Shown one piece after another: positions 7,989-15,861 of a stretch of DNA of 32,000 nt. The notes under the pieces were generated by a model. That model was not told where the DNA came from and did no database searches. It saw nothing but the letters and a program-made list of their open reading frames with translations. The position numbers and the translations under genes are program-made. This stretch comes from Pseudomonadota bacterium (lineage in GTDB: Bacteria; Myxococcota_A; Polyangia; Polyangiales; Polyangiaceae). Position 1 is the first letter of the stretch. Each line of letters begins with the position of its first letter. The stretch is taken from the NCBI GenBank assembly GCA_023402175.1, contig JAEXCN010000099.1:25178-57177 (forward strand). The letters are read 5' to 3'.

Positions 7989-8045
7989 GTCAGCTCACCG
8001 GGGTTGAACCGGCAGCCTCTGCTCTCGGCCACGTTGGCGAGCAGT
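7989..8045 (-). pseudogene. truncated tRNA-like remnant (hairpin plus T-arm, ~57 nt)
   Basis: Hairpin CTGCTC...GAGCAG followed by T-arm GCCGG-TTCAACC-CCGGT. No complete cloverleaf and only 5/7 acceptor pairs. Confidence 0.4.
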
Positions 8046-8118
8046 ACGGGGCGAGAGGATCGAACTCTCCTAGCCCTGCTTGTGAGGCAGGTGTCATCAC
8101 CAGATGAGCGGGCCCCGC
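8045..8118 (-). tRNA. tRNA-Val(CAC), 74 nt, degenerate D-stem
   Basis: Acceptor GCGGGGC/GCCCCGT (G1-U72). AC CCTGC-CTCACAA-GCAGG. T GAGAG-TTCGATC-CTCTC. C8, and D-stem GCTC/TGAC mispaired. Confidence 0.65.
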
Positions 8119-8157
8119 GTTCTCCGCCCCGAACCGCAGCTCGGAGCGTTTTGCCGG

Positions 8158-8231
8158 TTCCGGAGGAGGGATTCGCACCCCTCATCCCAGCGGTTCAAAG
8201 CCGCGGATCTTTGCTCTTGGACCACTCCGGA
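8158..8231 (-). tRNA. tRNA-Gln(UUG), 74 nt, non-canonical
   Basis: Acceptor TCCGGAG/CTCCGGA. AC loop CTTTGAA. T-loop TGCGAAT (G55). D-loop CAAGAGCAAA lacks GG. Confidence 0.6.
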
Positions 8232-8285
8232 TCGGGCGCGTCGTGAGCGCTCGTACTCGAGCGCGTCCAGGGCAAGACGCGCCGG

Positions 8286-8354
8286 TCGCTACGGGCAGAG
8301 TCGAACTGCCTGGGCCGCGCTCATGAGGCGCGCCCTCCTCCGAGGAACGCAGCG
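8286..8354 (-). tRNA. tRNA(CAU) Met/Ile2-type, 69 nt, mini D-arm
   Basis: Acceptor CGCTGCG/CGTAGCG. D CCTC-GGAG-GAGG (4-nt loop). AC CGCGC-CTCATGA-GCGCG. T GGCAG-TTCGACT-CTGCC. Confidence 0.65.
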
Positions 8355-8389
8355 ATGCTTGCGTTCTGCACGGATGCGAACGCAGGCGG

Positions 8390-8460
8390 AGCGGTGACCG
8401 AGAATCGCACTCGGATCTCGAGCGTGGCGGGCTCGGGTTCTACTCTTGAACTATCACCGC
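8390..8460 (-). tRNA. tRNA-Gly(GCC), 71 nt, non-canonical
   Basis: Acceptor GCGGTGA/TCACCGC. D GTTC-AAGAGTA-GAAC (no GG). AC CGAGC-CCGCCAC-GCTCG (C33). T CCGAG-TGCGATT-CTCGG (G55). Confidence 0.7.
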
Positions 8461-8566
8461 AGAGGCCGGGCGATGACACCCATCGCGCACGGGTAGAGCG
8501 GCCCTCGCACCGTCCTCATCCTTCGCTACCAGTGAGGTGCCCCGCTCTCTGGCCGTGGGCGGCACG

Positions 8567-8623
8567 TGAAAAGAGCTCGTCCCCAAGTCATGTCCGCTTG
8601 GAGCTGTCCCTCGTGGGGACGAG
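8567..8623 (-). terminator. possible intrinsic terminator downstream of rsr
   Basis: Minus sense: 10-bp GC stem GCTCGTCCCC/GGGGACGAGC followed by TCTTTTC. The apical loop is long (30 nt), so the call is weak. Confidence 0.35.
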
Positions 8624-8705
8624 CAGGTGATCGGCAACGAGGGGCGTGAAGACGGGCCTTCACGGGCATTTGCCGGATGAATTCGATCGAGTCGCAGATC
8701 GACAA

Positions 8706-10313
8706 TCAGATCGAGACGGACTCGATCTCGTGGAGAAAGGCGGAGCCGTCGGCGTCACCTTTCGCGAACGCGGCCACGATCTCGAAGACGGCATCGGAGA
8801 AACCGCCGACGTTCAGCACATCGCTGCGGTTCGCGACCTGCGTGGTCGCGTAGGGCTGCAGGTCGACGAGCACGAGCCTGGCGCGCGGATTGTTCGCACG
8901 GAGTCGCTCCCATTCCTCGGCCATGACGGTCGCTCTCGTCGCGTTCGATGCGCTCGGATCCACAGCGCGTGGCTCGAGCCTGAAGTCCGCCCACGACTGG
9001 TTGTCGGAGACGAAGACGACGAGGTCGGGGGCCATGCCGCGCGCATTGAGCCACCGCAGCGGCGCAGCGCACGAGGTCCCGCCGCTCGGGAGCGACGAGA
9101 GGAGCTCGGCGTTGGTGACCACCGAATCCAGCGCGTTGAGCTGACGACGAAGGGGGACGACGTCGTCCGAGAACGGCAGGACCGTCGCGCGCTCGTTCTT
9201 CCGGAGCAGCGCGGCAGTCGCGAGCGCGGCGACGTCGATGCAACGGACCTTGGAGGAGGCAGTCCCGCGCCGGCCCGTGACTGGAGAGTGCATCGACCCT
9301 GACACGTCCGGACACAGCGCGACGGAGCCGGCGACCTCGGGCACGTTCGCGACGGCGTGCTCGACGGAGCGAGCCAGCGCGTTGACGATCCCCGGCGGCA
9401 TGCTGGTCTCGACCGCGCGATATGCGGCGAGGAGCTGATAGGGGAGTGTGCGCGAGCGCTTCACGGCCTCGGCATCCGAGAGCTTCTCGGCGACGAGATC
9501 GACCATCGCGGGATCGGTGAAGACGCCGTGACGGTAGAGCGTGTTGAGGTTCTGGCGGAGCTGATTGAACGTCATCTTCTTCGCCAGCTCGGTCCAGTGC
9601 TGGGCGCGCAGTGGGAGAGCGGTGAGCATCTCGAACGGCACGTCCGGCAGAGGCTCCCGATCGTTCTTCTTCCAGGCTTCGAATGCCTGGGTGAGCGGCG
9701 GGAGCTTGGAGCAGTCCACGTTCTTTCCGATGAGGTAGCCGTAGAGGGCCTCACGAACGGCATCGGCTTCGCCCTTGTCGTTCCGCGGGGGAGGGCGAAC
9801 CATCTTGATGACGTCCGACATGGACGGGCTCTGACCGATGGACTGGCGGAAGATGGTCTCGGGGCTCTTCGCTGCGAACCATTCGCGGAGCGCTCGCTTC
9901 GGGGCCGAGCCGAACGACTTGCGGCCCGTGACACCGGAGCGAACGATCGCCACGAACGTCCGCAGCATCCGCGCGTCGTCGATGACGCGTGGGAAGACAC
10001 GCAGCATGAGGGCGACATCGCGCGCGGCGAGCCAGGCGACGAGGAACGCCGGGACGTCCTTCATCCTGCCGTGCTTGCGGCAATACACGGCCGTCTTTGC
10101 GACGAGCTCCGGGCTCACCGAGCTCGCGAGTGCCGCGACGTTCTCGAGCTGCTGCTCGTCGGTCGCGTAGAACGTGCCGTGAAACGTGCCGGTGACTGCG
10201 TATTGCGCCAGAGCATGCTCGGGCGGGAGCGCGTATGCCAGGCCGCCGGCTTCGTTGAATGCGTCGGCAACGGGGGCATTTCCTCCGTGACCAAATAGAT
10301 GCTTGTTCGGCAT
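8706..10313 (-). CDS. rsr: Ro60-related protein Rsr (TROVE domain plus vWA/MIDAS domain), 535 aa
   Basis: ATG 10313 preceded by AAGGAGAAACC. N-terminus NEAGGLAYAL...GTFHGTFYATDEQQ (TROVE-like). C-terminus ALCPDVSGSM (DxSxS MIDAS)...GGTSCAAPL...VFVSDNQSW. The track ORF extends to 10988 only because the upstream tRNA genes lack stops. Confidence 0.85.
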   Translation of the reverse strand: MPNKHLFGHGGNAPVADAFNEAGGLAYALPPEHALAQYAVTGTFHGTFYATDEQQLENVAALASSVSPELVAKTAVYCRKHGRMKDVPAFLVAWLAARDVALMLRVFPRVIDDARMLRTFVAIVRSGVTGRKSFGSAPKRALREWFAAKSPETIFRQSIGQSPSMSDVIKMVRPPPRNDKGEADAVREALYGYLIGKNVDCSKLPPLTQAFEAWKKNDREPLPDVPFEMLTALPLRAQHWTELAKKMTFNQLRQNLNTLYRHGVFTDPAMVDLVAEKLSDAEAVKRSRTLPYQLLAAYRAVETSMPPGIVNALARSVEHAVANVPEVAGSVALCPDVSGSMHSPVTGRRGTASSKVRCIDVAALATAALLRKNERATVLPFSDDVVPLRRQLNALDSVVTNAELLSSLPSGGTSCAAPLRWLNARGMAPDLVVFVSDNQSWADFRLEPRAVDPSASNATRATVMAEEWERLRANNPRARLVLVDLQPYATTQVANRSDVLNVGGFSDAVFEIVAAFAKGDADGSAFLHEIESVSI

Positions 10314-10403
10314 GGTTTCTCCTTTCCGAGCTCGTGTGAGGTGTCGGTCGTGCGCTTGCTCCGGCGCACGATCGTGTGTTGTTCCGGTTTCGAAGAGATG
10401 AGG

Positions 10404-10477
10404 CGTTCCCGACGGGATTCGAACCCGTGTTCCTGGCTTGAGAGACCAGAGTCCTTGGCCGTCTAGACGACGGGAAC
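10404..10477 (-). tRNA. tRNA-Glu(CUC), 74 nt, canonical
   Basis: GTTCCCG TC GTC-TAGACGGCCAAG-GAC T CTGGT-CTCTCAA-GCCAG GAAC ACGGG-TTCGAAT-CCCGT CGGGAAC G. Confidence 0.9.
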
Positions 10478-10519
10478 CGACGAGGAGCGCGCGGAGGCGC
10501 GGGCGCAGTCGAAAGATGA

Positions 10520-10647
10520 AGGTCGTCCGAGTGTCTCGAGCATCGGTGTTGACTTGGGAGTCGAACCCAAAACGGTCAGCTTCTGAGGCTGGTGTCCTTC
10601 CATTGGACGAGTCGAGTGCGTGTGAGCTCGGGTCGAGCGGACGACCT
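10520..10647 (-). ncRNA. Y-RNA-like candidate: tRNA-like domain (anticodon CAG, short variable loop, weak acceptor) clamped by a long terminal stem module
   Basis: 10-bp H1 AGGTCGTCCG/CGGACGACCT, 7x7 internal loop (CTCGACC / AGACACT), 5-bp H2 CGAGC/GCTCG, then TCACACGC. This leads into D GTCC-AATGGAA-GGAC, AC CCAGC-CTCAGAA-GCTGA and T TTGGG-TTCGACT-CCCAA. The same module occurs in units A-D. Lies about 200 nt upstream of rsr. Confidence 0.5.
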
Positions 10648-10721
10648 GGATGCAGCGGCTGGAGTCGCACCAGCGTCTCGAGCTTATGAGGCTCGCGGGG
10701 TGGCTCCTCCCCCACGCTGCA
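10647..10721 (-). tRNA. tRNA(CAU) Met/Ile2-type, 72 nt plus encoded CCA
   Basis: Acceptor TGCAGCG/CGCTGCA. D GGGG-AGGAGCCA-CCCC. AC CGAGC-CTCATAA-GCTCG. T GCTGG-TGCGACT-CCAGC (G55). T73-CCA. Confidence 0.75.
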
Positions 10722-10760
10722 ATGAGTCTCCGGATCGAGAGTGTTCTCGCGTCTGGAGGG

Positions 10761-10830
10761 CACCTTCGCCGGGAGTCGAACCCGGAGAACGAGCTTCGGA
10801 GGCTCGGCCCTGATTCCGCAGGACGAAGGT
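10761..10830 (-). tRNA. tRNA-Arg(CCG), 70 nt
   Basis: Acceptor ACCTTCG/CGAAGGT. AC CGAGC-CTCCGAA-GCTCG. T CCGGG-TTCGACT-CCCGG. D-arm CCTG-CGGAAT-CAGG shifted by 1 nt. Confidence 0.7.
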
Positions 10831-10834
10831 AGGG

Positions 10835-10923
10835 AGGAAGAAAGAGGTCTCGAACCCCACACGCTCTTCCGAGCGTGCGCATTGCTTTCGAGGCAAGCCC
10901 GGCGCCCAGCCGGTTTTTCATCC
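10835..10923 (-). tRNA. tRNA-Ser(CGA), class II, 89 nt
   Basis: Acceptor GGATGAA/TTCTTCC (one U-U). AAA linker. D CCGG-CTGGGCG-CCGG. AC loop CTCGAAA. Variable arm ACGCTC-GGAA-GAGCGT. T-loop TTCGAGA. Confidence 0.75.
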
Positions 10924-10930
10924 ATGTCAG

Positions 10931-11003
10931 TGGTCGGTGAGGGAATCGAACCCCCTACGCAGAGCTTTTCAAACTCCCGCTCTACCAATTGAGCTTACCG
11001 ACC
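10931..11003 (-). tRNA. tRNA-Phe(GAA), 73 nt, canonical
   Basis: GGTCGGT AA GCTC-AATTGGTA-GAGC G GGAGT-TTGAAAA-GCTCT GCGTA GGGGG-TTCGATT-CCCTC ACCGACC A. Confidence 0.9.
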
Positions 11004-11015
11004 GTTTCAACGTGC

Positions 11016-11090
11016 TGGCCTCCCCGCCAGGAATCGAACCTGGACAACTGGCTTCGTAGACCGGTGCGTGGGATCCACCACGACGAGGAG
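11016..11090 (-). tRNA. tRNA-Arg(ACG), 72 nt plus encoded CCA
   Basis: Acceptor CTCCTCG/CGGGGAG. AC loop CTACGAA (stem has a C-A mismatch). T CCAGG-TTCGATT-CCTGG. 5-bp shifted D-stem CGTGG/CCACG. Confidence 0.7.
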
Positions 11091-11094
11091 AGGG

Positions 11095-11182
11095 AGGAAG
11101 GCAGAGGACTCGAACCTCACGCGGCTCGACACCGCGCGAATCGCGTTCCAGACGATCTCCGCCCCCGGCGGATTTGCCTTCC
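11095..11182 (-). tRNA. tRNA-Ser(GGA), class II, 88 nt
   Basis: Acceptor GGAAGGC/GCCTTCC. AAA linker. D TCCG-CCGGGGG-CGGA. AC ATCGT-CTGGAAC-GCGAT. Variable arm CGCGG...CCGCG. T-loop TTCGAGT. Paralog of Ser(CGA). Confidence 0.75.
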
Positions 11183-11216
11183 GGGTATTGCAATGCGCCT
11201 GCTCATGCGAGCGCGG

Positions 11217-11291
11217 TCAGGACGGCAGGATTCGAACCTGCGCTCTCCAGTCCCCCAGACTGGCGCTTTTGCCGGGCTAAGCTACGCCCTG
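11217..11291 (-). tRNA. tRNA-Pro(GGG), 75 nt
   Basis: CAGGGCG TA GCTT-AGCCCGGCAA-AAGC G CCAGT-CTGGGGG-ACTGG AGAGC GCAGG-TTCGAAT-CCTGC CGTCCTG A. Confidence 0.85.
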
Positions 11292-11390
11292 AGGCTTTCA
11301 CGTAGTCGTGGAAATCAAGAATAAAGTGGTCCAGTTTCACGTCATGGACCAGGACGCGGGAGCTCTGTCGACGCTCACGCGATCGACGCC

Positions 11391-11924
11391 TCATGCAGAG
11401 AGCGGAGCCGAAGCCGTGTAGCCGTCGCAGTACGGCTGCCAGACATCCGGCAGATCACCCTCATCGAGACGGATCGGCGGCACGGCGGGCAGCCAGGTCG
11501 GCTTCTTCGGCTGCCGCAGCAGCTTCATGCCGGCCTGCTCAGGCGTGCGGCTCCCCTTGCGATCGTTGCATGCGTAGCAGGAGGTGACGATGTTCTCCCA
11601 AACCGTCTTTCCTCCCTGCACGCGCGGGATGACGTGGTCGTAGTTGAGGCCTCTGATCGGCTTCTTGTCACCGCAGTACTGGCAGCGGAACCTGTCGCGC
11701 GTAAAGACGTTCATCCGGGAGAAGCGGACCGACTGCTTCGTCGACACCGACCCCTTCTTCAGGCGGACCACGGCGGGCGTCATCATCGCGATGCTCGGGG
11801 CACGGAGCTCCGCGTCCCAGGTCTCGATGACTTCGACCTTGCCGAGATAAGCCAGCACGACGGCGCGCTGCCAGGGAATGATCTTGTGAGGCGCCATCCA
11901 TGGAGTCAGCATCAGCGTTTGCAT
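11391..11924 (-). CDS. HNH endonuclease (177 aa)
   Basis: CQYCG...DHVIPRVQGGKTVWENIVTSCYACNDRKG (HNH with Cys4 zinc motif). N-terminus IIPWQRAVVLAYLGKVEVIE is typical of the small stand-alone HNH family. Same strand as the tRNA array. Confidence 0.85.
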   Translation of the reverse strand: MQTLMLTPWMAPHKIIPWQRAVVLAYLGKVEVIETWDAELRAPSIAMMTPAVVRLKKGSVSTKQSVRFSRMNVFTRDRFRCQYCGDKKPIRGLNYDHVIPRVQGGKTVWENIVTSCYACNDRKGSRTPEQAGMKLLRQPKKPTWLPAVPPIRLDEGDLPDVWQPYCDGYTASAPLSA

Positions 11925-12064
11925 GGGTCACCGTTTCTTTCTCGTTTTCAAGGCTCGATCTCCTTTTCGGAGGGATGAAGAAGTCGTGCGGGATGCACGA
12001 CGACGGGCGTCATCAGAGATAGCGAACGGACGGTGCGCTGATGTTGCTCGGATATGGCGAGTAG

Positions 12065-12149
12065 TGTCACCGGAGGGAGTCGAACCCTCAAACTCGCAAC
12101 GGAGCCCAGCATCTCGGGCTGGCGTGTATTCCAGTTCCACCACGGTGAC
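12065..12149 (-). tRNA. tRNA-Leu(GAG), class II, 85 nt
   Basis: Acceptor GTCACCG/CGGTGAC, A73. 3-bp D-stem. AC CCAGC-CCGAGAT-GCTGG (C33). ~16-nt variable arm. T GAGGG-TTCGACT-CCCTC. Confidence 0.8.
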
Positions 12150-12186
12150 GTGTCGCGTCCGTCTCGCGCTCGGCGATCTTGGACGT

Positions 12187-12266
12187 TGGTACCGACGGAG
12201 GGATTCGAACCCTCACAACACACAGTTTCTGAGACTGCGGCCTCTACCAGATTGGGCCACGTCGGC
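12187..12266 (-). tRNA. tRNA with Leu anticodon CAG but only a 7-nt variable loop (77 nt plus CCA)
   Basis: GCCGACG TG GCC-CAATCTGGTAGA-GGC C GCAGT-CTCAGAA-ACTGT GTGTTGT GAGGG-TTCGAAT-CCCTC CGTCGGT A CCA. Leu-like D-arm but no long variable arm. Confidence 0.65.
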
Positions 12267-12298
12267 ATGAAGCGCGATCCGCAGGGCGGCTTGCGCGG

Positions 12299-12373
12299 TC
12301 TGTGCAGGAGGATTCGAACCTCCAATCCCTCCGACCCGAACGGAGTGCTCTAGCCAGGTTGAGCCATGCACAG
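12299..12373 (-). tRNA. tRNA-Pro(CGG), 75 nt, canonical
   Basis: CTGTGCA TG GCTC-AACCTGGCTA-GAGC A CTCCG-TTCGGGT-CGGAG GGATT GGAGG-TTCGAAT-CCTCC TGCACAG A (C1-G72, A73). Confidence 0.9.
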
Positions 12374-12412
12374 AGAAACGACGATGATCGACGGGAGCTC
12401 GAGCCATCGCCG

Positions 12413-12484
12413 TGGTGGACCAGTCGGGAGTCGCACCCGAACCATCTGCTTGCAAGACAGACGTCTCCCCTCGGAGACAAGCCC
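12413..12484 (-). tRNA. tRNA-Ala(UGC), 69 nt plus CCA, mini D-arm
   Basis: Acceptor GGGCTTG/CTGGTCC with G3-U70. D CTCC-GAGG-GGAG (4-nt loop). AC TCTGT-CTTGCAA-GCAGA. T TCGGG-TGCGACT-CCCGA (G55). Confidence 0.7.
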
Positions 12485-12523
12485 ATGTTGAATCACTGCA
12501 TGACGGCGGGACTGGCCCGCCGG

Positions 12524-12596
12524 TGCGGCGCGCAGGGATCGCACCTGCCTCCTCCTGCTCGTCATGCAGGCGCAGTCGCTAGACTGCCAGCGCCGC
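12524..12596 (-). tRNA. tRNA-Val(GAC), 73 nt
   Basis: GCGGCGC TG GCAG-TCTAGCGA-CTGC G CCTGC-ATGACGA-GCAGG AGGAG GCAGG-TGCGATC-CCTGC GCGCCGC A. G55, and no GG in the D-loop. Confidence 0.75.
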
Positions 12597-12619
12597 TCTT
12601 CTCGTCGAAGAGAGCTTCG

Positions 12620-12692
12620 TGGATCACCTGCGAATCGAACGCAGTGCGGGCTCCTTATCAGAGAGTCCAGGGTGACCAACCCGTCGTGATCC
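12620..12692 (-). tRNA. tRNA-Ile(GAU), 73 nt
   Basis: GGATCAC GA CGGG-TTGGTCAC-CCTG G ACTCT-CTGATAA-GGAGC CCGCA CTGCG-TTCGATT-CGCAG GTGATCC A. Confidence 0.8.
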
Positions 12693-12715
12693 GTCGTTTA
12701 TGTCTGGTGAACGAT

Positions 12716-12787
12716 TGGAGAGCCGAGAGGGAGTTGAACCCTCGCGCGCCGTTTTGCAGACGACGATCCTCCCCGGAGAATCGGCTC
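12716..12787 (-). tRNA. tRNA-Cys(GCA), 69 nt plus CCA, mini D-arm
   Basis: Acceptor GAGCCGA/TCGGCTC. D TCC-GGGGA-GGA. AC GTCGT-CTGCAAA-ACGGC. T GAGGG-TTCAACT-CCCTC. T73-CCA. Confidence 0.65.
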
Positions 12788-12852
12788 GAAGAAGTGGGCG
12801 CAGTTCCCTGTTGGCCGACGTCACGTGCGCGTCGGACGTTGGGGCTGCGCGG

Positions 12853-12923
12853 AGCGGGCAGAGGGAATCGCACCCTCATTGTCAGTTTGGAAGACTGCGG
12901 TCCTACTGTTGGACGATACCCGC
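12853..12923 (-). tRNA. tRNA-Gly(UCC), 71 nt
   Basis: GCGGGTA TC GTCC-AACAGTA-GGAC C GCAGT-CTTCCAA-ACTGA CAAT GAGGG-TGCGATT-CCCTC TGCCCGC T. G55, and no GG in the D-loop. Confidence 0.75.
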
Positions 12924-13119
12924 AGGATATGAATCGAAGTATCGCAAGCCTCGACGAGATTGACGAAGACGTAGGTGATCGGCAGCTCGCGCTGCCGGGC
13001 ACCATGATGCACGAGCGAGCAGCAGCCGCTCTTGCATCATCGGCACATTGAAGCCGCCCGCGAAGGCAGCTTCCGTTCGCCCCGCAAGGAGAGAGTCCAC
13101 CGAGGTGGTCTCCTGAGAA

Positions 13120-13225
13120 GCGCTCGGCTGGAGTCCGCGGAGCGCTCTCTGACTCTCCCTATGCCATCGCTAGGTCGGTCGCCCGACGTTCGCTACCTTA
13201 GGACCGTTATAGTTACGGATGTAGT
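13120..13225 (-). ncRNA. 23S rRNA domain IV (H69-H71) look-alike fragment inside a ~400-nt non-tRNA spacer
   Basis: Minus sense 13218..13189 reads CCGTAACTATAACGGTCCTAAGGTAGCGAA, which as I recall it is the universally conserved 23S segment and contains the I-CeuI site. It is followed by GTCGGG..CCGACCT..CGATGGC..GAGAGTCAGAGA..CCGCGG, patches colinear with 23S H70/H71 but with the loops deleted. Confidence 0.6.
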
Positions 13226-13322
13226 CCTCGTCGGCATTCGAGACCGACGCTGATGTTGCTCGTGTCGTGTGAGATCTGTTGTTCGTAATTTTCGAGATCG
13301 CTGCCCAGGGATGGGGCAGCGC

Positions 13323-13398
13323 TGGTGGAACCGGCCGGACTCGCACCGGCAACCTCCTCGATGCCATCGAGGCGCTCTCCTGGCTGAGCTACGGCCCC
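13323..13398 (-). tRNA. tRNA-Ala(GGC), 73 nt plus CCA
   Basis: GGGGCCG TA GCTC-AGCCAGGA-GAGC G CCTCG-ATGGCAT-CGAGG AGGTT GCCGG-TGCGAGT-CCGGC CGGTTCC A CCA. G3-U70, G55. Confidence 0.85.
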
Positions 13399-13425
13399 TT
13401 TCGTTCGGATGTCCTTCGCGTGTGG

Positions 13426-13499
13426 TGGTGGAGCGACGGGGAATCGCACCCCGATCCCTGCAATGCGAATGCAGCGTTCTCCTGTTGAACTATCGCCCC
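13426..13499 (-). tRNA. tRNA-Ala(CGC), 71 nt plus CCA
   Basis: GGGGCGA TA GTTC-AACAGGA-GAAC G CTGCA-TTCGCAT-TGCAG GGAT CGGGG-TGCGATT-CCCCG TCGCTCC A CCA. G3-U70, G55. Confidence 0.8.
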
Positions 13500-13533
13500 A
13501 GGGTCCCCACGTGGTGGGGAGCAGACAAGTCGG

Positions 13534-13604
13534 CAGGCCGCGAAGGAATCGAACCCTCTCTCCGGGGGTTGGAATCCCGGCTGGTCACCATGACTCTACG
13601 GCCT
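13534..13604 (-). tRNA. tRNA-Trp(CCA), 71 nt, aberrant D-arm
   Basis: Acceptor AGGCCGT/GCGGCCT, G73. AC CGGGA-TTCCAAC-CCCCG (A31-C39 mismatch). T GAGGG-TTCGATT-CCTTC. The D region pairs only as GTC-ATGGT-GAC. Confidence 0.65.
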
Positions 13605-13631
13605 GTGCTCTCGAGCGCGGTGCGCTTGCAG

Positions 13632-13703
13632 CGCCTCGTAGGGGAATCGAACCCCTCTCGCCCCATAGACAGTGGGGTTGCGACGCCAGTCGCATCACGA
13701 GGC
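13632..13703 (-). tRNA. tRNA-Asp(GUC), 72 nt
   Basis: GCCTCGT GA TGCG-ACTGGCGT-CGCA A CCCCA-CTGTCTA-TGGGG CGAG AGGGG-TTCGATT-CCCCT ACGAGGC G. Position 37 is U. Confidence 0.75.
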
Positions 13704-13727
13704 AATGAACGTCGATATTCGTGGCGG

Positions 13728-13799
13728 TGTCCTCGGCAGGAGTCGAACCCGCGTCTGCCGGTTTAGAAGACCGGCGCCTCTCCGCTCGGCCACGAGGAC
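13728..13799 (-). tRNA. tRNA-Arg(UCU), 72 nt
   Basis: GTCCTCG TG GCC-GAGCGGAGA-GGC G CCGGT-CTTCTAA-ACCGG CAGAC GCGGG-TTCGACT-CCTGC CGAGGAC A. The D-arm looks like a class II type. Confidence 0.75.
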
Positions 13800-13820
13800 G
13801 TTCTTGCTCTCCTGGCTCGG

Positions 13821-13885
13821 CGTCCCCGGCAGGAGTCGAACCTGCGTCGACCGGATTAGGAGCCTATCCGTTCGGCCAGGATGAC
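13821..13885 (-). pseudogene. tRNA-like paralog of Arg(UCU) with ~7-nt deletion in the anticodon arm (65 nt)
   Basis: GTCATCC TG GCC-GAACGGATA-GGC T CC..TAATCCGG TCGAC GCAGG-TTCGACT-CCTGC CGGGGAC G. Two acceptor mismatches and no 5-7-5 anticodon arm. Confidence 0.5.
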
Positions 13886-13929
13886 AGAGGCTGTCTGCGC
13901 AGGCGAAGAGTGGATCGGTGCGCGGCCGG

Positions 13930-14002
13930 GGTAGCGTACGGGAATCGCACCCGCCTCCACTGAGTCACAATCAGCCCTCGTCACTAGACGAGTAACGCTA
14001 CC
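13930..14002 (-). tRNA. tRNA-His(GUG) with encoded G-1, 73 nt
   Basis: G-1 GTAGCGT TA CTCG-TCTAGTGA-CGAG G GCTGA-TTGTGAC-TCAGT GGAG GCGGG-TGCGATT-CCCGT ACGCTAC C73. G55. Confidence 0.8.
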
Positions 14003-14084
14003 ATGTATTCAGATGCTCATTCGAGTCGGTGATGTCAACCTCGAGCCTGAATTTCGTCTGCCGTTGATAGGCACTTCGTCGAAC

Positions 14085-14159
14085 TGGTGCTCCCGATCGG
14101 AATCGAACCGATACCTTCCGCTTGAAAGGCGGAGATCCTGACCACTAGATGACGGGAGC
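14085..14159 (-). tRNA. tRNA-Glu(UUC), 72 nt plus CCA
   Basis: GCTCCCG TC ATC-TAGTGGTCAG-GAT C TCCGC-CTTTCAA-GCGGA AGGT ATCGG-TTCGATT-CCGAT CGGGAGC A CCA. Confidence 0.85.
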
Positions 14160-14165
14160 AAACGT

Positions 14166-14308
14166 GTCGTCCGAGTGAGAAGGTCGTTGTCATGTGAATG
14201 ACGGGTTGACTGCCCGTTGCCTTACCACTTGGCTACGATGGCGAAACGCCAGCGGCTGGATTCGAACCAGCGATTCGATTGCGTGTAGGACCTGTTCGAT
14301 CGGACGAC
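14166..14308 (-). ncRNA. permuted tRNA-like ncRNA unit A (Y-RNA/YrlA-like candidate)
   Basis: Minus-sense order: H1 GTCGTCCG, loop ATCGAAC, H2 AGGTC, CTACACGCAATCGAATC. Then T-arm GCTGG-TTCGAAT-CCAGC, acceptor 3' strand CGCTGGC, cap GTTTC, acceptor 5' strand GCCATCG, TA. Then D GCC-AAGTGGTAA-GGC, hairpin ACGGG-CAGTCAA-CCCGT, H2' GACCT, loop TCTCACT, H1' CGGACGAC. Confidence 0.5.
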
Positions 14309-14457
14309 GACGAGGGGGCCGTAGAGCGCCGACGATGATCGGCGCGGTAAAGGAGCGCCTCGTCAGGTGCGTGCCTGCGAGGCGTGGAGCTCAGAGGCGA
14401 GCTCGGCAAGCTCGGCGGCGTCCGGTGCGTTGGACGCGCGGGCTGCTGAAGAAAAGT

Positions 14458-14627
14458 CCTCACCCGAGTGAAAAAGCCGGTTGGATGGTTCCATCATTCA
14501 AGATGAGTGCCTTTACCAGTTAGGCTATCGCTGCGTACGATTTGCGGTGGCGGGCACCGTGAGCAGCGAGTCGGATTCGAACCGACATTTCCTCGATTGC
14601 GTGTAGGGCATCTTCGGTCGGGTGAGG
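14458..14627 (-). ncRNA. permuted tRNA-like ncRNA unit B
   Basis: H1 CCTCACCCG/CGGGTGAGG, loops ACCGAAG / TTTCACT, H2 ATGCC/GGCTT, CTACACGCAAT. T GTCGG-TTCGAAT-CCGAC. Acceptor TCGCTGC, 28-nt cap, GCAGCGA. D GCC-TAACTGGTAAA-GGC. Hairpin TCATC-TTGAAT-GATGG. Confidence 0.5.
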
Positions 14628-14663
14628 GAAATCGGAATGCGCTTAGCTCGCTGCGCGAGCATC

Positions 14664-14744
14664 TGGTCCCCCGTGATGGAATCGAACCACCTACCGAAAG
14701 GCACCGGGTTACGACCGGCTGCTCCGCCATGGAGCGAACGAGGG
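14664..14744 (-). tRNA. tRNA-Tyr(GUA), 78 nt plus CCA
   Basis: CCCTCGT TC GCTC-CATGGCG-GAGC A GCCGG-TCGTAAC-CCGGT GCCTTTCGGTA GGTGG-TTCGATT-CCATC ACGGGGG A CCA. C33, 11-nt variable region. Confidence 0.75.
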
Positions 14745-14752
14745 AAGAGGGG

Positions 14753-14909
14753 CACCCGAGTGAGAAAGCCGTGTTGTCGTCTGAATGGACGAGCGCCTTA
14801 CCATTAGGCCACGCTGGAATAGGTGTTTTGGAGCTCGATGGCTCACGGCTCCAGCGGACGGAATCGAACCGTCGTGTCTCATTGCGTGTAGGGCATTCCC
14901 TGGCGGGTG
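14753..14909 (-). ncRNA. permuted tRNA-like ncRNA unit C
   Basis: H1 CACCCG/CGGGTG, loops CCAGGGA / TCTCACT, H2 ATGCC/GGCTT, CTACACGCAAT. T GACGG-TTCGATT-CCGTC. Acceptor CGCTGGA, 31-nt cap, TCCAGCG (identical to the tRNA-Asn acceptor). D GCC-TAATGGTAA-GGC. Hairpin TCGTC-CATTCA-GACGA. Confidence 0.5.
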
Positions 14910-14913
14910 ACGG

Positions 14914-14985
14914 AGCCCACGTCCGGAGTCGAACCGGATCCTCCCGTGTACGAGACGGGTGCTCGACCATTCGAGCTGCGCGGGC
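14914..14985 (-). tRNA. tRNA-Thr(CGU), 72 nt, canonical
   Basis: GCCCGCG CA GCTC-GAATGGTC-GAGC A CCCGT-CTCGTAC-ACGGG AGGA TCCGG-TTCGACT-CCGGA CGTGGGC T. Confidence 0.9.
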
Positions 14986-14988
14986 AGG

Positions 14989-15042
14989 GGCCCCATGTAC
15001 TCATGGGGAACGAAAGAGGCGGGCCCCATGTACTCATGGGGA
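14989..15042. repeat. two direct copies of a 21-bp hairpin element (GGCCCCATGTACTCATGGGGA), period 33 bp
   Basis: Copies at 14989-15009 and 15022-15042. Each contains the inverted repeat CCCCATG-tact-CATGGGG. A related CCATG-ttgct-CATGG occurs at about 15486-15500. Confidence 0.7.
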
Positions 15043-15118
15043 AAAGAAGGTGCTCGCGGTGCGCGCGTCGCCTGGGTGGGAGGCGCGCGCGCCGGCGCGA
15101 GCGGGTGAGAAGAATGTC

Positions 15119-15264
15119 TCGTCCGAGTGGAGAAGCCGGTGCAAGTGCTCGTATGCGAAACGAGTGCCTTCCCATTAGGCTAGCAGCCCTGTGCCTTGCG
15201 GCTGGTGGACCACGTTGGAGTCGAACCAACATGTTGTGCGTGTAAGGCTTGTCCGAGCGGACGA
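15119..15264 (-). ncRNA. permuted tRNA-like ncRNA unit D (tRNA-Ala-type body)
   Basis: H1 TCGTCCG/CGGACGA, loops CTCGGAC / CTCCACT, H2 AAGCC/GGCTT, TTACACGCACAACAT. T GTTGG-TTCGACT-CCAAC. GTGGTCC-A-CCA, 13-nt linker GCCGCAAGGCACA, then GGGCTGC (7 pairs including G3-U70). TA, D GCC-TAATGGGAA-GGC, hairpin CTCGT-TTCGCAT-ACGAG (CGC). Confidence 0.55.
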
Positions 15265-15269
15265 AGAAG

Positions 15270-15341
15270 CTCCAGCGGAAGGAATCGAACCTTCGAAGGA
15301 CCGGTTAACGGCCGGCTGCCTGACCATTCGGCTTCGCTGGA
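15270..15341 (-). tRNA. tRNA-Asn(GUU), 72 nt
   Basis: TCCAGCG AA GCC-GAATGGTCA-GGC A GCCGG-CCGTTAA-CCGGT CCTTC GAAGG-TTCGATT-CCTTC CGCTGGA G. C33, U1-A72, G73. Confidence 0.8.
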
Positions 15342-15521
15342 ATACGTGCTCGTCGCGTTCGTGCCGCGCTGCTGCCGTCTCGACGAACCCGATCTCTTCC
15401 GAGGCAGGACGACGAAGCGGTCAGCGCGCACGAGACGCGACGAGCCTTGGCGCCAAGTTGTCATAGAGCGAGGGACCTCGAGCTCCCCATGTTGCTCATG
15501 GAGAACGAGACCGAGAGTCCT

Positions 15522-15595
15522 TGGTTCCGAGCACAGGATTCGAACCTGTCTTCCTGGTTTCAGAGGCCAGTGTCCTGCCGCTAGACGAGCCCGGA
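15522..15595 (-). tRNA. tRNA-Gln(CUG) with Glu-type body, 71 nt plus CCA
   Basis: TCCGGGC TC GTC-TAGCGGCAG-GAC A CTGGC-CTCTGAA-ACCAG GAAG ACAGG-TTCGAAT-CCTGT GCTCGGA A CCA. Close in body to Glu(CUC) at 10404. Confidence 0.75.
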
Positions 15596-15653
15596 GCAGG
15601 CGGCGGCGTGCGAAGGTCGCAAGTCGCCGGTGCCACGTCGTTCGACGCAGCAG

Positions 15654-15726
15654 TAGGTCCGGAGGGAATCGAACCCTCACCACCCCGGGTAAGAGCCGGG
15701 TGCGCTTCCGATTGCGCTACGGACCT
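15654..15726 (-). tRNA. tRNA-Lys(CUU), 73 nt, canonical
   Basis: AGGTCCG TA GCGC-AATCGGAA-GCGC A CCCGG-CTCTTAC-CCGGG GTGGT GAGGG-TTCGATT-CCCTC CGGACCT A. Confidence 0.9.
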
Positions 15727-15788
15727 GTATTTGGCGCGATGCGACGAACCGGGGCAGCACTGCCCGCAGCCGCACGCATCGCGGTGAG

Positions 15789-15861
15789 TGGGACGCGAGG
15801 GAGTCGAACCCTCATCCCTCGGCTTAAAAGGCCGGTGCTCGGCCGATTGAGCTAGCGCCCC
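15789..15861 (-). tRNA. tRNA-Lys(UUU), 73 nt, canonical
   Basis: GGGGCGC TA GCTC-AATCGGCC-GAGC A CCGGC-CTTTTAA-GCCGA GGGAT GAGGG-TTCGACT-CCCTC GCGTCCC A. First gene of the array in the direction of transcription. Confidence 0.9.

Follow-up and report, generated by a model that had tools for sequence, protein, structure and literature searches.

An alternative A18·G55 inner elbow contact proposed for nine tRNAs of a Ro60-linked tRNA array in a Labilithrix-like myxobacterium

We analyzed a stretch of 32,000 nucleotides of bacterial chromosome (G+C 62-70%) from a Polyangiaceae genome assembly (GCA_023402175.1, contig JAEXCN010000099.1, positions 25,178 to 57,177), hereafter the window, which contains a dense tRNA array of about 35 tRNA and tRNA-like genes on its minus strand (8044-15861). 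Exact protein matches located the window on LEMO22-1 scaffold_64, a metagenome scaffold of 88.7 kb. Nine of these genes read U54-G55-C56-R57-A58 in the T-loop and carry a guanosine in place of the near-universal uridine of position 55. Judged from the sequence, the contact between D-loop and T-loop is not lost in these tRNAs: the outer pair G19-C56 is kept and the inner pair alone changes, from G18·U55 to A18·G55. We propose that the nine genes are very probably genuine, selectively maintained tRNAs of a chromosomal, Ro60-linked array of a Labilithrix-like myxobacterium, in which an alternative inner elbow contact is used.

Guanosine 55 and adenosine 18 in the array tRNAs

A scan for T-arms, defined as 5-bp stems closing a T[TG]CRANN loop, detected exactly nine TGCGA arms in the array, with G55 at positions 8176, 8408, 10668, 12434, 12542, 12871, 13344, 13447 and 13948. 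The rest of the window yielded seven chance TGCGA-type hairpins in the same scan, none of them inside a tRNA call. All nine arms read G-T-G-C-G-A-N-N-C, with a seven-base loop on stems of 4-5 bp, and the core of the T-arm (G53-C61, U54, C56, R57 and A58) is present throughout. An earlier note on this DNA had reported nine such tRNAs together with their T-loop sequences, and we could confirm both the number and every sequence quoted. It had also named an Infernal alignment as a check of the register. Run against the Rfam tRNA model RF00005, this alignment placed G under the model U55 in nine of nine genes with the top posterior probability. Because the G is flanked in all nine by an intact G53-C61 stem end and by C56/R57/A58, no alternative register puts U at position 55. 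ARAGORN, which called eight of the nine genes, agrees with the Rfam model on the register. The remaining genes of the array have TTCGA or TTCAA T-loops as previously stated and number about 26, not 25.

Position 18 deviates as well, with A18 in eight of the nine genes and an AG in the atypical ninth; in the literature, both U55 and G18 are described as universally or highly conserved. Infernal aligned an AG dinucleotide under G18G19 in six genes, all located, as are the other three, on the minus strand (scores in bits refer to RF00005): tRNA-Gln(UUG) (8156..8231; A18 8215, G19 8214, G55 8176, C56 8175; T-loop TGCGAAT; 38.3 bits; orthologs in loci L003, L005, L007 and L010), tRNA-Gly(GCC) (8388..8460; A18 8444, G55 8408; D-loop AAGAGTA, T-loop TGCGATT; 54.8 bits), tRNA(CAU), which is either Met or Ile2 (10647..10721; A18 10705, G55 10668; D-loop AGGAGCCA, T-loop TGCGACT; 52.7 bits), tRNA-Val(GAC) (12522..12596; A18 12580, G55 12542; D-loop TCTAGCGA, T-loop TGCGATC; 27.5 bits), tRNA-Gly(UCC) (12851..12923; A18 12907, G55 12871; D-loop AACAGTA, T-loop TGCGATT; 53.5 bits) and tRNA-His(GUG) (13928..14002; A18 13985, G55 13948; D-loop TCTAGTGA; 41.6 bits), which encodes G-1 (14002) and C73.

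The two canonical alanine genes, tRNA-Ala(GGC) (13323..13398; D-loop AGCCAGGA, G55 13344; 56.4 bits) and tRNA-Ala(CGC) (13426..13499; D-loop AACAGGA, G55 13447; 60.9 bits), both have G3·U70, A73 and CCA. Here, Infernal takes the GG as positions 18 and 19 and leaves position 20 deleted. In our survey samples (see below), the D-loops of U55 tRNA-Ala overwhelmingly end in GGGA (G18 G19 G20 A21), whereas every G55 tRNA-Ala ends in AGGA. Since xAGGA stands where U55 tRNA-Ala reads xGGGA, the sequences indicate that both genes have A18-G19, followed by G20 (A18 at 13381 and 13483, respectively). The ninth gene is an atypical, Ala(UGC)-like gene (12413..12484; G55 12434, T-loop TGCGACT; 31.7 bits) that ARAGORN misses in the window; it has G3·U70, A73 and an encoded CCA, and its orthologs have the D-loops GAGG, GTAG or GAGT with compensatory D-stem changes in L003, L005, L007, L008 and L010. 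The five D-loops that the earlier note had listed as lacking GG were quoted correctly, but GG is not simply missing from them, as A18-G19 is clear in eight of the nine genes.

Covariation, conservation and recurrence of the A18/G55 state

We collected tRNAs from loci encoding Ro60 homologs, four of which were found by an exact-protein look-up and 80 in one scan of species-representative genomes. Three samples were added, consisting of phage contigs drawn with the G55 T-arm pattern and of a phage control and a metagenome control drawn with the canonical pattern. The pattern used for sampling phages and metagenomes had a single fixed T-stem (GGG/CCC) and an encoded CCA, and it under-samples the class.

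The Ro60-linked loci contain 544 tRNAs, among which 414 combine U55 with GG, 63 combine G55 with AG, 11 combine G55 with the xAGGA D-loop of tRNA-Ala and five combine U55 with an apparent AG. Across all samples, ARAGORN called 1,630 tRNAs (120 with G55, 1,496 with U55). An unambiguous AG was found in 103 of the G55 genes, 11 are of the Ala xAGGA type and six contain AG outside our parsing rule; A18 accompanies G55 in at least 114 of the 120 tRNAs. GG was found in 1,404 of the 1,496 U55 genes, and the association of G55 with AG and of U55 with GG was highly significant (Fisher's exact test, p = 4e-129). In most of the 16 U55 genes that were scored as AG, position 18 is in fact G and precedes A19 or U19, which pair with U56 or A56; at most about five genes are candidates for true A18/U55 intermediates among about 1,500 U55 genes.

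The outer pair 19/56 also covaries in array and phage tRNAs (A19-U56, U19-A56 and C19-G56). TTTGA T-loops (U56) occur with xTGAx D-loops (A19), TTAGA T-loops (A56) occur with xGTAx D-loops (U19), and tRNA-Leu(UAG) genes combine A18-C19 with G55-G56. Such outer-pair variants were found in the Pyrinomonadaceae arrays L039, L076 and L079, in L069, L093, L209 and others, and in L027, L088 and L199. As the base after position 18 covaries with position 56, the register of the D-loop dinucleotide is fixed independently. The covariation at the elbow that the earlier note had suspected from the window is therefore real and far stronger in the survey, but it takes a different form, in which G19-C56 is kept and A18·G55 replaces G18·U55.

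Comparison of orthologs allowed us to follow the exchange within single tRNA families. Ortholog pairs differ by exactly the double change from G18/U55 to A18/G55, with the remaining sequence being very similar. For tRNA-His, D-loop and T-loop read TCTAGTGA/TGCGATT in the clade of the window and TCTGGCGA/TTCGATC in L014 and L018 (L013 has TCTGGGA with TTCGATC). For tRNA-Val(GAC), TCTAGCGA/TGCGATC in the window clade compares with TCTGGTGA/TTCGATC in L014 and L011, and for tRNA-Gly(GCC), AACAGTA/TGCGATT compares with AACGGTA/TTCGATT in L019 and L036. The double change between orthologs was also observed for Gly UCC (G18/U55 orthologs in L017, L018 and L019), Phe, Gln UUG and Ala CGC (the L019 ortholog has AAGTGGGA/TTCGAAT). 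Both states were found for Gln CUG and Pro CGG, too, but here the two forms are less alike. Since both states occur in orthologous tRNAs of several families, the sequences indicate that the switch occurred repeatedly, and the presence of the G18/U55 state of His, Val and Gly UCC in other arrays shows that G55 originated inside the lineage of the arrays instead of being copied in from another source.

In seven Labilithrix-clade arrays, G55 occupies matching slots (His, Ala CGC, Ala GGC, Gly UCC, Val GAC, CAU, Gly GCC and Gln UUG), and no reversion of G55 was seen in the seven genomes. G55 is further present in Leu CAA, Thr GGU and Ala UGC in some of the seven syntenic arrays, and G55 orthologs of Gly GCC extend from the seven to L006, L011, L014 and L015. 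In eight ortholog groups, 164 stem pairs comprise 24 compensatory and 15 one-sided changes, and 996 of 1,005 cells (99.1%) are standard pairs; tRNA(CAU) contributes six compensatory stem pairs from seven orthologs. U54, G55, C56, A58, A18 and G19 are invariant among the orthologs, whereas positions 57, 59 and 60 and the bases beside position 18 vary. TGCAA also occurs among orthologs, and two orthologs have C54-G55 (CGCGA), namely Gln UUG of L010 (~12039-12112) and the Ala-UGC-like gene of L005 (7318-7387). This CGCGA corresponds to the CGNRA form, the less common one among riboswitch T-loops, and such tRNAs would lose the m5U54 site, too. Identity elements are in place: G3·U70 with A73 in the three alanine genes, G-1 with C73 in His, and U73 with G1-C72, C2-G71 and G3-C70 in Gly.

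These data bear on the explanation that the nine genes are decaying pseudogenes or that their alignment is mis-registered. Some array members are indeed degenerate and Val GAC stays below the Rfam gathering score, which is in line with such an explanation. Yet two independent methods agree on the register, and the high proportion of standard stem cells, the 24 compensatory pairs, the invariant elbow bases and the intact identity elements argue that these are not decaying genes. The register, the stem pairs and the invariant elbow bases contradict the explanation, and we give it practically no credence.

G55 is unevenly distributed. It makes up 26% of the window array, amounts to six to nine genes per sister array and reaches 20-30% in the Labilithrix-clade arrays. 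In the controls drawn with the canonical pattern, the share is about 1% (7/647 in phages, 2/160 in metagenomes), and one of the two metagenome cases sits in a seven-tRNA cluster. In some phage loci, G55 is clustered (5/11, 4/5 and 4/4 tRNAs). None of the 64 tRNAs of three cultured phages (Rhodococcus phage NiceHouse, Erythrobacter phage XM05 and Caulobacter phage CcrColossus) has G55, and megablast of 29 of the 41 collected phage and metagenome G55 tRNAs against cultured phages gave no match. Outside the window array, G55 was also found in Leu, Thr, Phe, Pro, Lys, Glu, Tyr, Cys, Asp, Arg, Trp and Ser tRNAs.

Part of this pattern could be produced by near-neutral drift, in which A18·G55 is about as good as G18·U55, supernumerary tRNAs switch occasionally, and the new state is kept without any advantage as single reversions are harmful. 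The presence of both states in orthologs of sister arrays, the switch in many isoacceptor families and the overall rarity (7/647, 2/160 and 0/64) are in line with drift, as is the tolerance of the arrays for other elbow variants and degenerate genes. Drift fits less well with the enrichment of G55 in the window array and its sisters over the roughly 1% elsewhere, with the co-clustering in phages, with the missing reversions in seven genomes and with the scarcity of A18/U55 intermediates. We regard drift as a serious possibility that falls somewhat short of an even chance.

Several observations weigh against the proposal of selectively maintained tRNAs with an alternative contact. For the A18·G55 geometry, the proposal relies on analogy with RNAs other than tRNA. 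The G55 state is limited to a quarter of the window array, it is found in 0 of 185 tRNAs in our sample of Ro60-linked arrays of Acidobacteriota and groups related to them, and no nuclease or modification enzyme is linked to it. Val GAC, with its 27.5 bits, is the sole one of the nine under the RF00005 gathering score of 29 bits, the other eight reaching 31.7-60.9 bits over model positions 1-71. The D-arm of the Ala-UGC-like gene is non-canonical, consisting of a 5-bp hairpin with a four-base GAGG loop directly after the acceptor stem. Degenerate array members (Arg-CCU and the short Leu-CAG at 10545) point to some relaxed constraint at the array locus.

Proposed geometry of the inner contact and comparison with known elbows

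In canonical tRNA, the intercalating base is G18, which forms one hydrogen bond to Ψ55, the pseudouridine of position 55. In riboswitch T-loops, the intercalating base is almost invariantly an A, which inserts between positions 4 and 5 of the loop and forms two hydrogen bonds to the sugar edge of G2; the T-loops of the FMN and cobalamin riboswitches are UGNRA in 89% and CGNRA in 11%. Like this generic T-loop, the array tRNAs combine U54-G55-C56-R57-A58 with A18, with rare C54 variants, and all nine present the U/C-G-N-R-A pattern in a seven-base loop as TGCGA. They differ from it in that the motif lies in a full cloverleaf and that position 3 (C56) still forms a Watson-Crick pair with G19, the geometry being deduced by analogy.

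Based on this likeness, we propose that the elbow uses a different inner tertiary contact. A18 replaces G18 and G55 replaces the uridine that normally becomes Ψ55, while G19-C56, U54-A58 and the G53-C61 stem end are unchanged. A18 would intercalate and bond the sugar edge of G55 as in UGNRA T-loops. A normal L-shape with an unchanged outer face is expected, and with it the preservation of the flat G19-C56 face, which a review of the tRNA elbow describes as the surface recognized by the ribosome, non-coding RNAs and proteins. An altered elbow had been suggested in the earlier note. A strongly altered elbow is unlikely, since A18·G55 equals the combination of a standard T-loop with the intercalated adenine known from riboswitches. 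The suggestion that these tRNAs are not TruB substrates follows from their chemistry: lacking a uridine at position 55, they cannot receive Ψ55 from TruB, and lacking a guanosine at position 18, they cannot receive Gm18 from TrmH.

We presume that the nine tRNAs become aminoacylated and take part in translation as members of a spare set. Alternatively, they could be non-translational tRNAs that donate amino acids to another pathway, like the cell-wall tRNA-Gly species of staphylococci, which lack G18G19 and U55C56. Gly and Ala, with two and three genes, respectively, make up a disproportionate share of the nine, and the staphylococcal tRNA-Gly provides a precedent for a non-proteinogenic tRNA without the canonical elbow nucleotides. 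However, the set also includes His, Val, Gln and CAU in the window (six anticodon specificities, with many more elsewhere) and 12 further types elsewhere, and it retains G19 and C56, unlike NP2, which has U19. Moreover, the T-stem pairs set the affinity for EF-Tu, and the change sits in the loops and not in these pairs. We consider a non-translational role highly improbable.

The same staphylococcal tRNA-Gly and tRNA-Pyl resemble the array tRNAs in being natural tRNAs without the G18G19 and T-Ψ-C signatures, and tRNA-Pyl of D. hafniense even has a G at position 55. In both, however, the whole contact between D- and T-loop is lost or remodelled (with a tiny D-loop, without G19-C56, or with U19), and each is devoted to one special amino acid or pathway. 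In the array tRNAs, by contrast, the 18·55 pair alone is swapped, in otherwise ordinary tRNAs for many amino acids.

A closer match of the nucleotides is found in the valine-accepting tRNA-like structures of tymoviruses (RF00233), for which the Rfam consensus has the D-loop CAGU and the T-loop UGCAACU and thereby the same AG/UGC dinucleotides. The association of D- and T-loop in the TYMV element has been described as nearly identical to that of tRNA, and the element engages host tRNA enzymes. Tymovirus elements have a pseudoknotted acceptor stem and form the 3' end of an RNA genome, whereas the array genes encode free-standing bacterial tRNAs with ordinary acceptor stems. A likeness to the D-arm layout of the viral elements is limited to the Ala-UGC-like gene, which scored 28.5 bits with the Rfam model Tymo_tRNA-like, under the threshold of 40 bits.

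In the open-access text of the reviews on non-canonical tRNAs, T-loop modification and the elbow, and of the tRNA-array papers that we searched, the A18/G55 covariation is undescribed. The same holds for open-access results of literature searches on G55/A18, on U55G/G18A and on T- and D-loop variants of phage tRNAs. In all features other than A18·G55, these genes belong to the ordinary tRNA family.

The array, its Ro60 and HNH genes and its structured RNAs

According to a published definition, a tRNA array unit has no fewer than 20 tRNA genes, with two or more of them per kb. The array of the window packs about 35 genes into 7.8 kb, or about 4.5 per kb, and covers all 20 amino acids; it falls within this definition and resembles published arrays in density, gene number and amino acid coverage. 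On the minus strand, ARAGORN called 31 tRNAs in the interval 8044-15861; elsewhere in the window, it called none. Rfam added Asn GUU (15270-15341), the Ala-UGC-like gene (12416-12484) and a Ser-CGA-like gene (10836-10923). A degenerate Arg-CCU ortholog with a decayed acceptor stem (~13815-13890, minus strand) was missed by ARAGORN. Further, we observed a Leu(CAG) gene that is short and type-I-like and has mismatches in its acceptor stem (10545-10616, minus strand) and, just past the last tRNA, a mini element (~7990-8040, minus strand) that has a 7-bp acceptor-like stem and a TTCAACC T-arm and is devoid of an anticodon arm. A scan of the array for sigma-70 promoters returned zero sites.

The array (8044..15861) is flanked by an M18 aminopeptidase gene on one side and by comM-recA on the other. 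Gene order and flanks (recA-comM and the M18 peptidase gene) are identical to the window in L003 and L005, and the gene order of L007-L010 is that of the window array. The identical flanks in L003 and L005 suggest that the array was inherited vertically within the Labilithrix clade. Megablast of the array against cultured phages gave no match, and a more sensitive blastn against phages and plasmids gave generic tRNA similarity and short exact rRNA-like matches only.

Embedded in the array is a Ro60/Rsr ortholog with TROVE and vWA domains (8706..10313, minus strand; Pfam PF25045 and PF05731). Its match to the NCBIfam model for Rsr is far below the cut-off; it has 7,006 homologs, and the nearest labelled ones are from Labilithrix and Polyangiaceae. 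Ro60-linked tRNA arrays are common and were found in Polyangia, Pyrinomonadaceae, Bryobacteraceae, a Pedosphaera metagenome-assembled genome (MAG) of the Verrucomicrobiota and others. Loci L020-L086 place Ro60 within or next to long tRNA arrays of several phyla; Pyrinomonadaceae and Bryobacteraceae MAGs, for instance, have 24-31 tRNAs in 7-22 kb around Ro60. The tRNA-array papers that we searched do not mention an association with Ro60, nor do they mention HNH genes, T-loop variants or position-55 variants.

The second protein-coding gene embedded in the array encodes an HNH endonuclease of 177 aa (11391..11924, minus strand; Pfam HNH_5/HNH). By tblastn, homologs with 35-94% identity were found in 23 further Ro60-linked loci of Polyangia, Acidobacteriota and Verrucomicrobiota (L003-L019, L027, L030, L036, L050, L051, L059, L069 and L079 carry this companion), and arrays linked to Ro60 and HNH also occur in other phyla. 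PADLOC and NCBIfam returned generic matches only for the HNH protein (including weak ones to PtuB, IscB and the Cas9 HNH domain) and no defence-system assignment for either Ro60 or HNH. We also considered whether HNH tracks the G55 state and rejected this, as arrays that have no G55 contain the gene, too.

On the minus strand, four genes for YrlA-like Y RNAs are interspersed with the tRNAs (~15265-15118, 14911-14751, 14626-14459 and 14308-14166). Their closing stem shows compensatory changes (TCGTCCG/CGGACGA versus CTCACCCG/CGGGTGAG), and they all have a conserved CCYTACACGCAAT box and a T-arm of canonical type (GGTTCGANTCC), followed by a D-arm-like TAGCCTAATGGGAAGGC. RNAalifold predicts 29 pairs, ten of them compensatory. 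The Rfam model for YrlA reaches only 21.6 bits, so that the standard model misses the four genes.

Between tRNA-Ala(GGC) and tRNA-Gly(UCC), we found a conserved structured RNA of about 225 nt (~13250-13030, minus strand) that is kept in L003, L005, L007 and L009; a 35-nt core is also present in L011, L014, L015 and L019. RNAalifold predicts 53 pairs for this RNA, with 14 compensatory ones. It contains what we take to be an exact copy of the helix-69 hairpin of E. coli 23S rRNA together with the following strand CCGTAACTATAACGGTCCTAAGGTAGCGAA, presumably the I-CeuI site. This would be followed by a shortened H70/71-like hairpin and by a stretch that resembles 23S positions ~2050-2062. The RNA may be a mimic of rRNA domain IV located next to Ro60.

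The setting of the array bears on a further explanation, an adaptive escape. Here, the swap would make the elbow unreadable to enzymes that read U55/Ψ55 or G18, such as T-loop toxins, or would free folding from TruB and TrmH, which would suit mobile or stress-induced spare tRNA sets. A T-loop toxin is known: CdiA-CT of B. pseudomallei E479 cuts between the conserved T and Ψ. Long arrays add supernumerary tRNA genes and can serve as an inducible backup set under translational stress, the A18/G55 state is enriched in arrays and phage tRNA clusters, and for the A·G contact two hydrogen bonds have been reported, compared with a single one for G18·Ψ55. Against an escape, we found neither a T-loop nuclease nor an immunity gene in the window, and the HNH gene gives generic matches and occurs in arrays without G55. 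Furthermore, only some isoacceptors are swapped, so that an attack on T-loops would still cripple translation. We consider an adaptive escape rather doubtful, and it is among the less certain parts of our proposal that an elbow independent of, or unreadable by, U55- and G18-specific enzymes may let the state recur in arrays and phages.

A more far-reaching version would see in A18·G55 an unrecognized class of tRNAs with a self-sufficient, stealthy elbow that folds without Ψ55 and Gm18 and evades enzymes and toxins reading U55/Ψ55 or G18. At this locus, such tRNAs would belong to a conserved island of Ro60, Y RNAs, the rRNA mimic and HNH that sustains translation when the tRNA pool is damaged. 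This version is speculative, and we hold it to be improbable.

For the proposed alternative inner contact itself, the array provides natural, matched ortholog pairs that differ only in G18/U55 versus A18/G55. Such pairs offer a direct way to ask what Ψ55, Gm18 and TruB give to the folding and function of tRNA, and why tRNAs use a U·G contact while most other T-loops use G·A; they could also serve as probes for whichever enzymes, toxins or sensors recognize the inner elbow. The A18/G55 combination could guide the design of tRNAs that are independent of host modification. With a share of about 1% in the phage and metagenome samples against 20-30% in one array clade, G55 may furthermore help to identify tRNA sets that are mobile or act as a backup.

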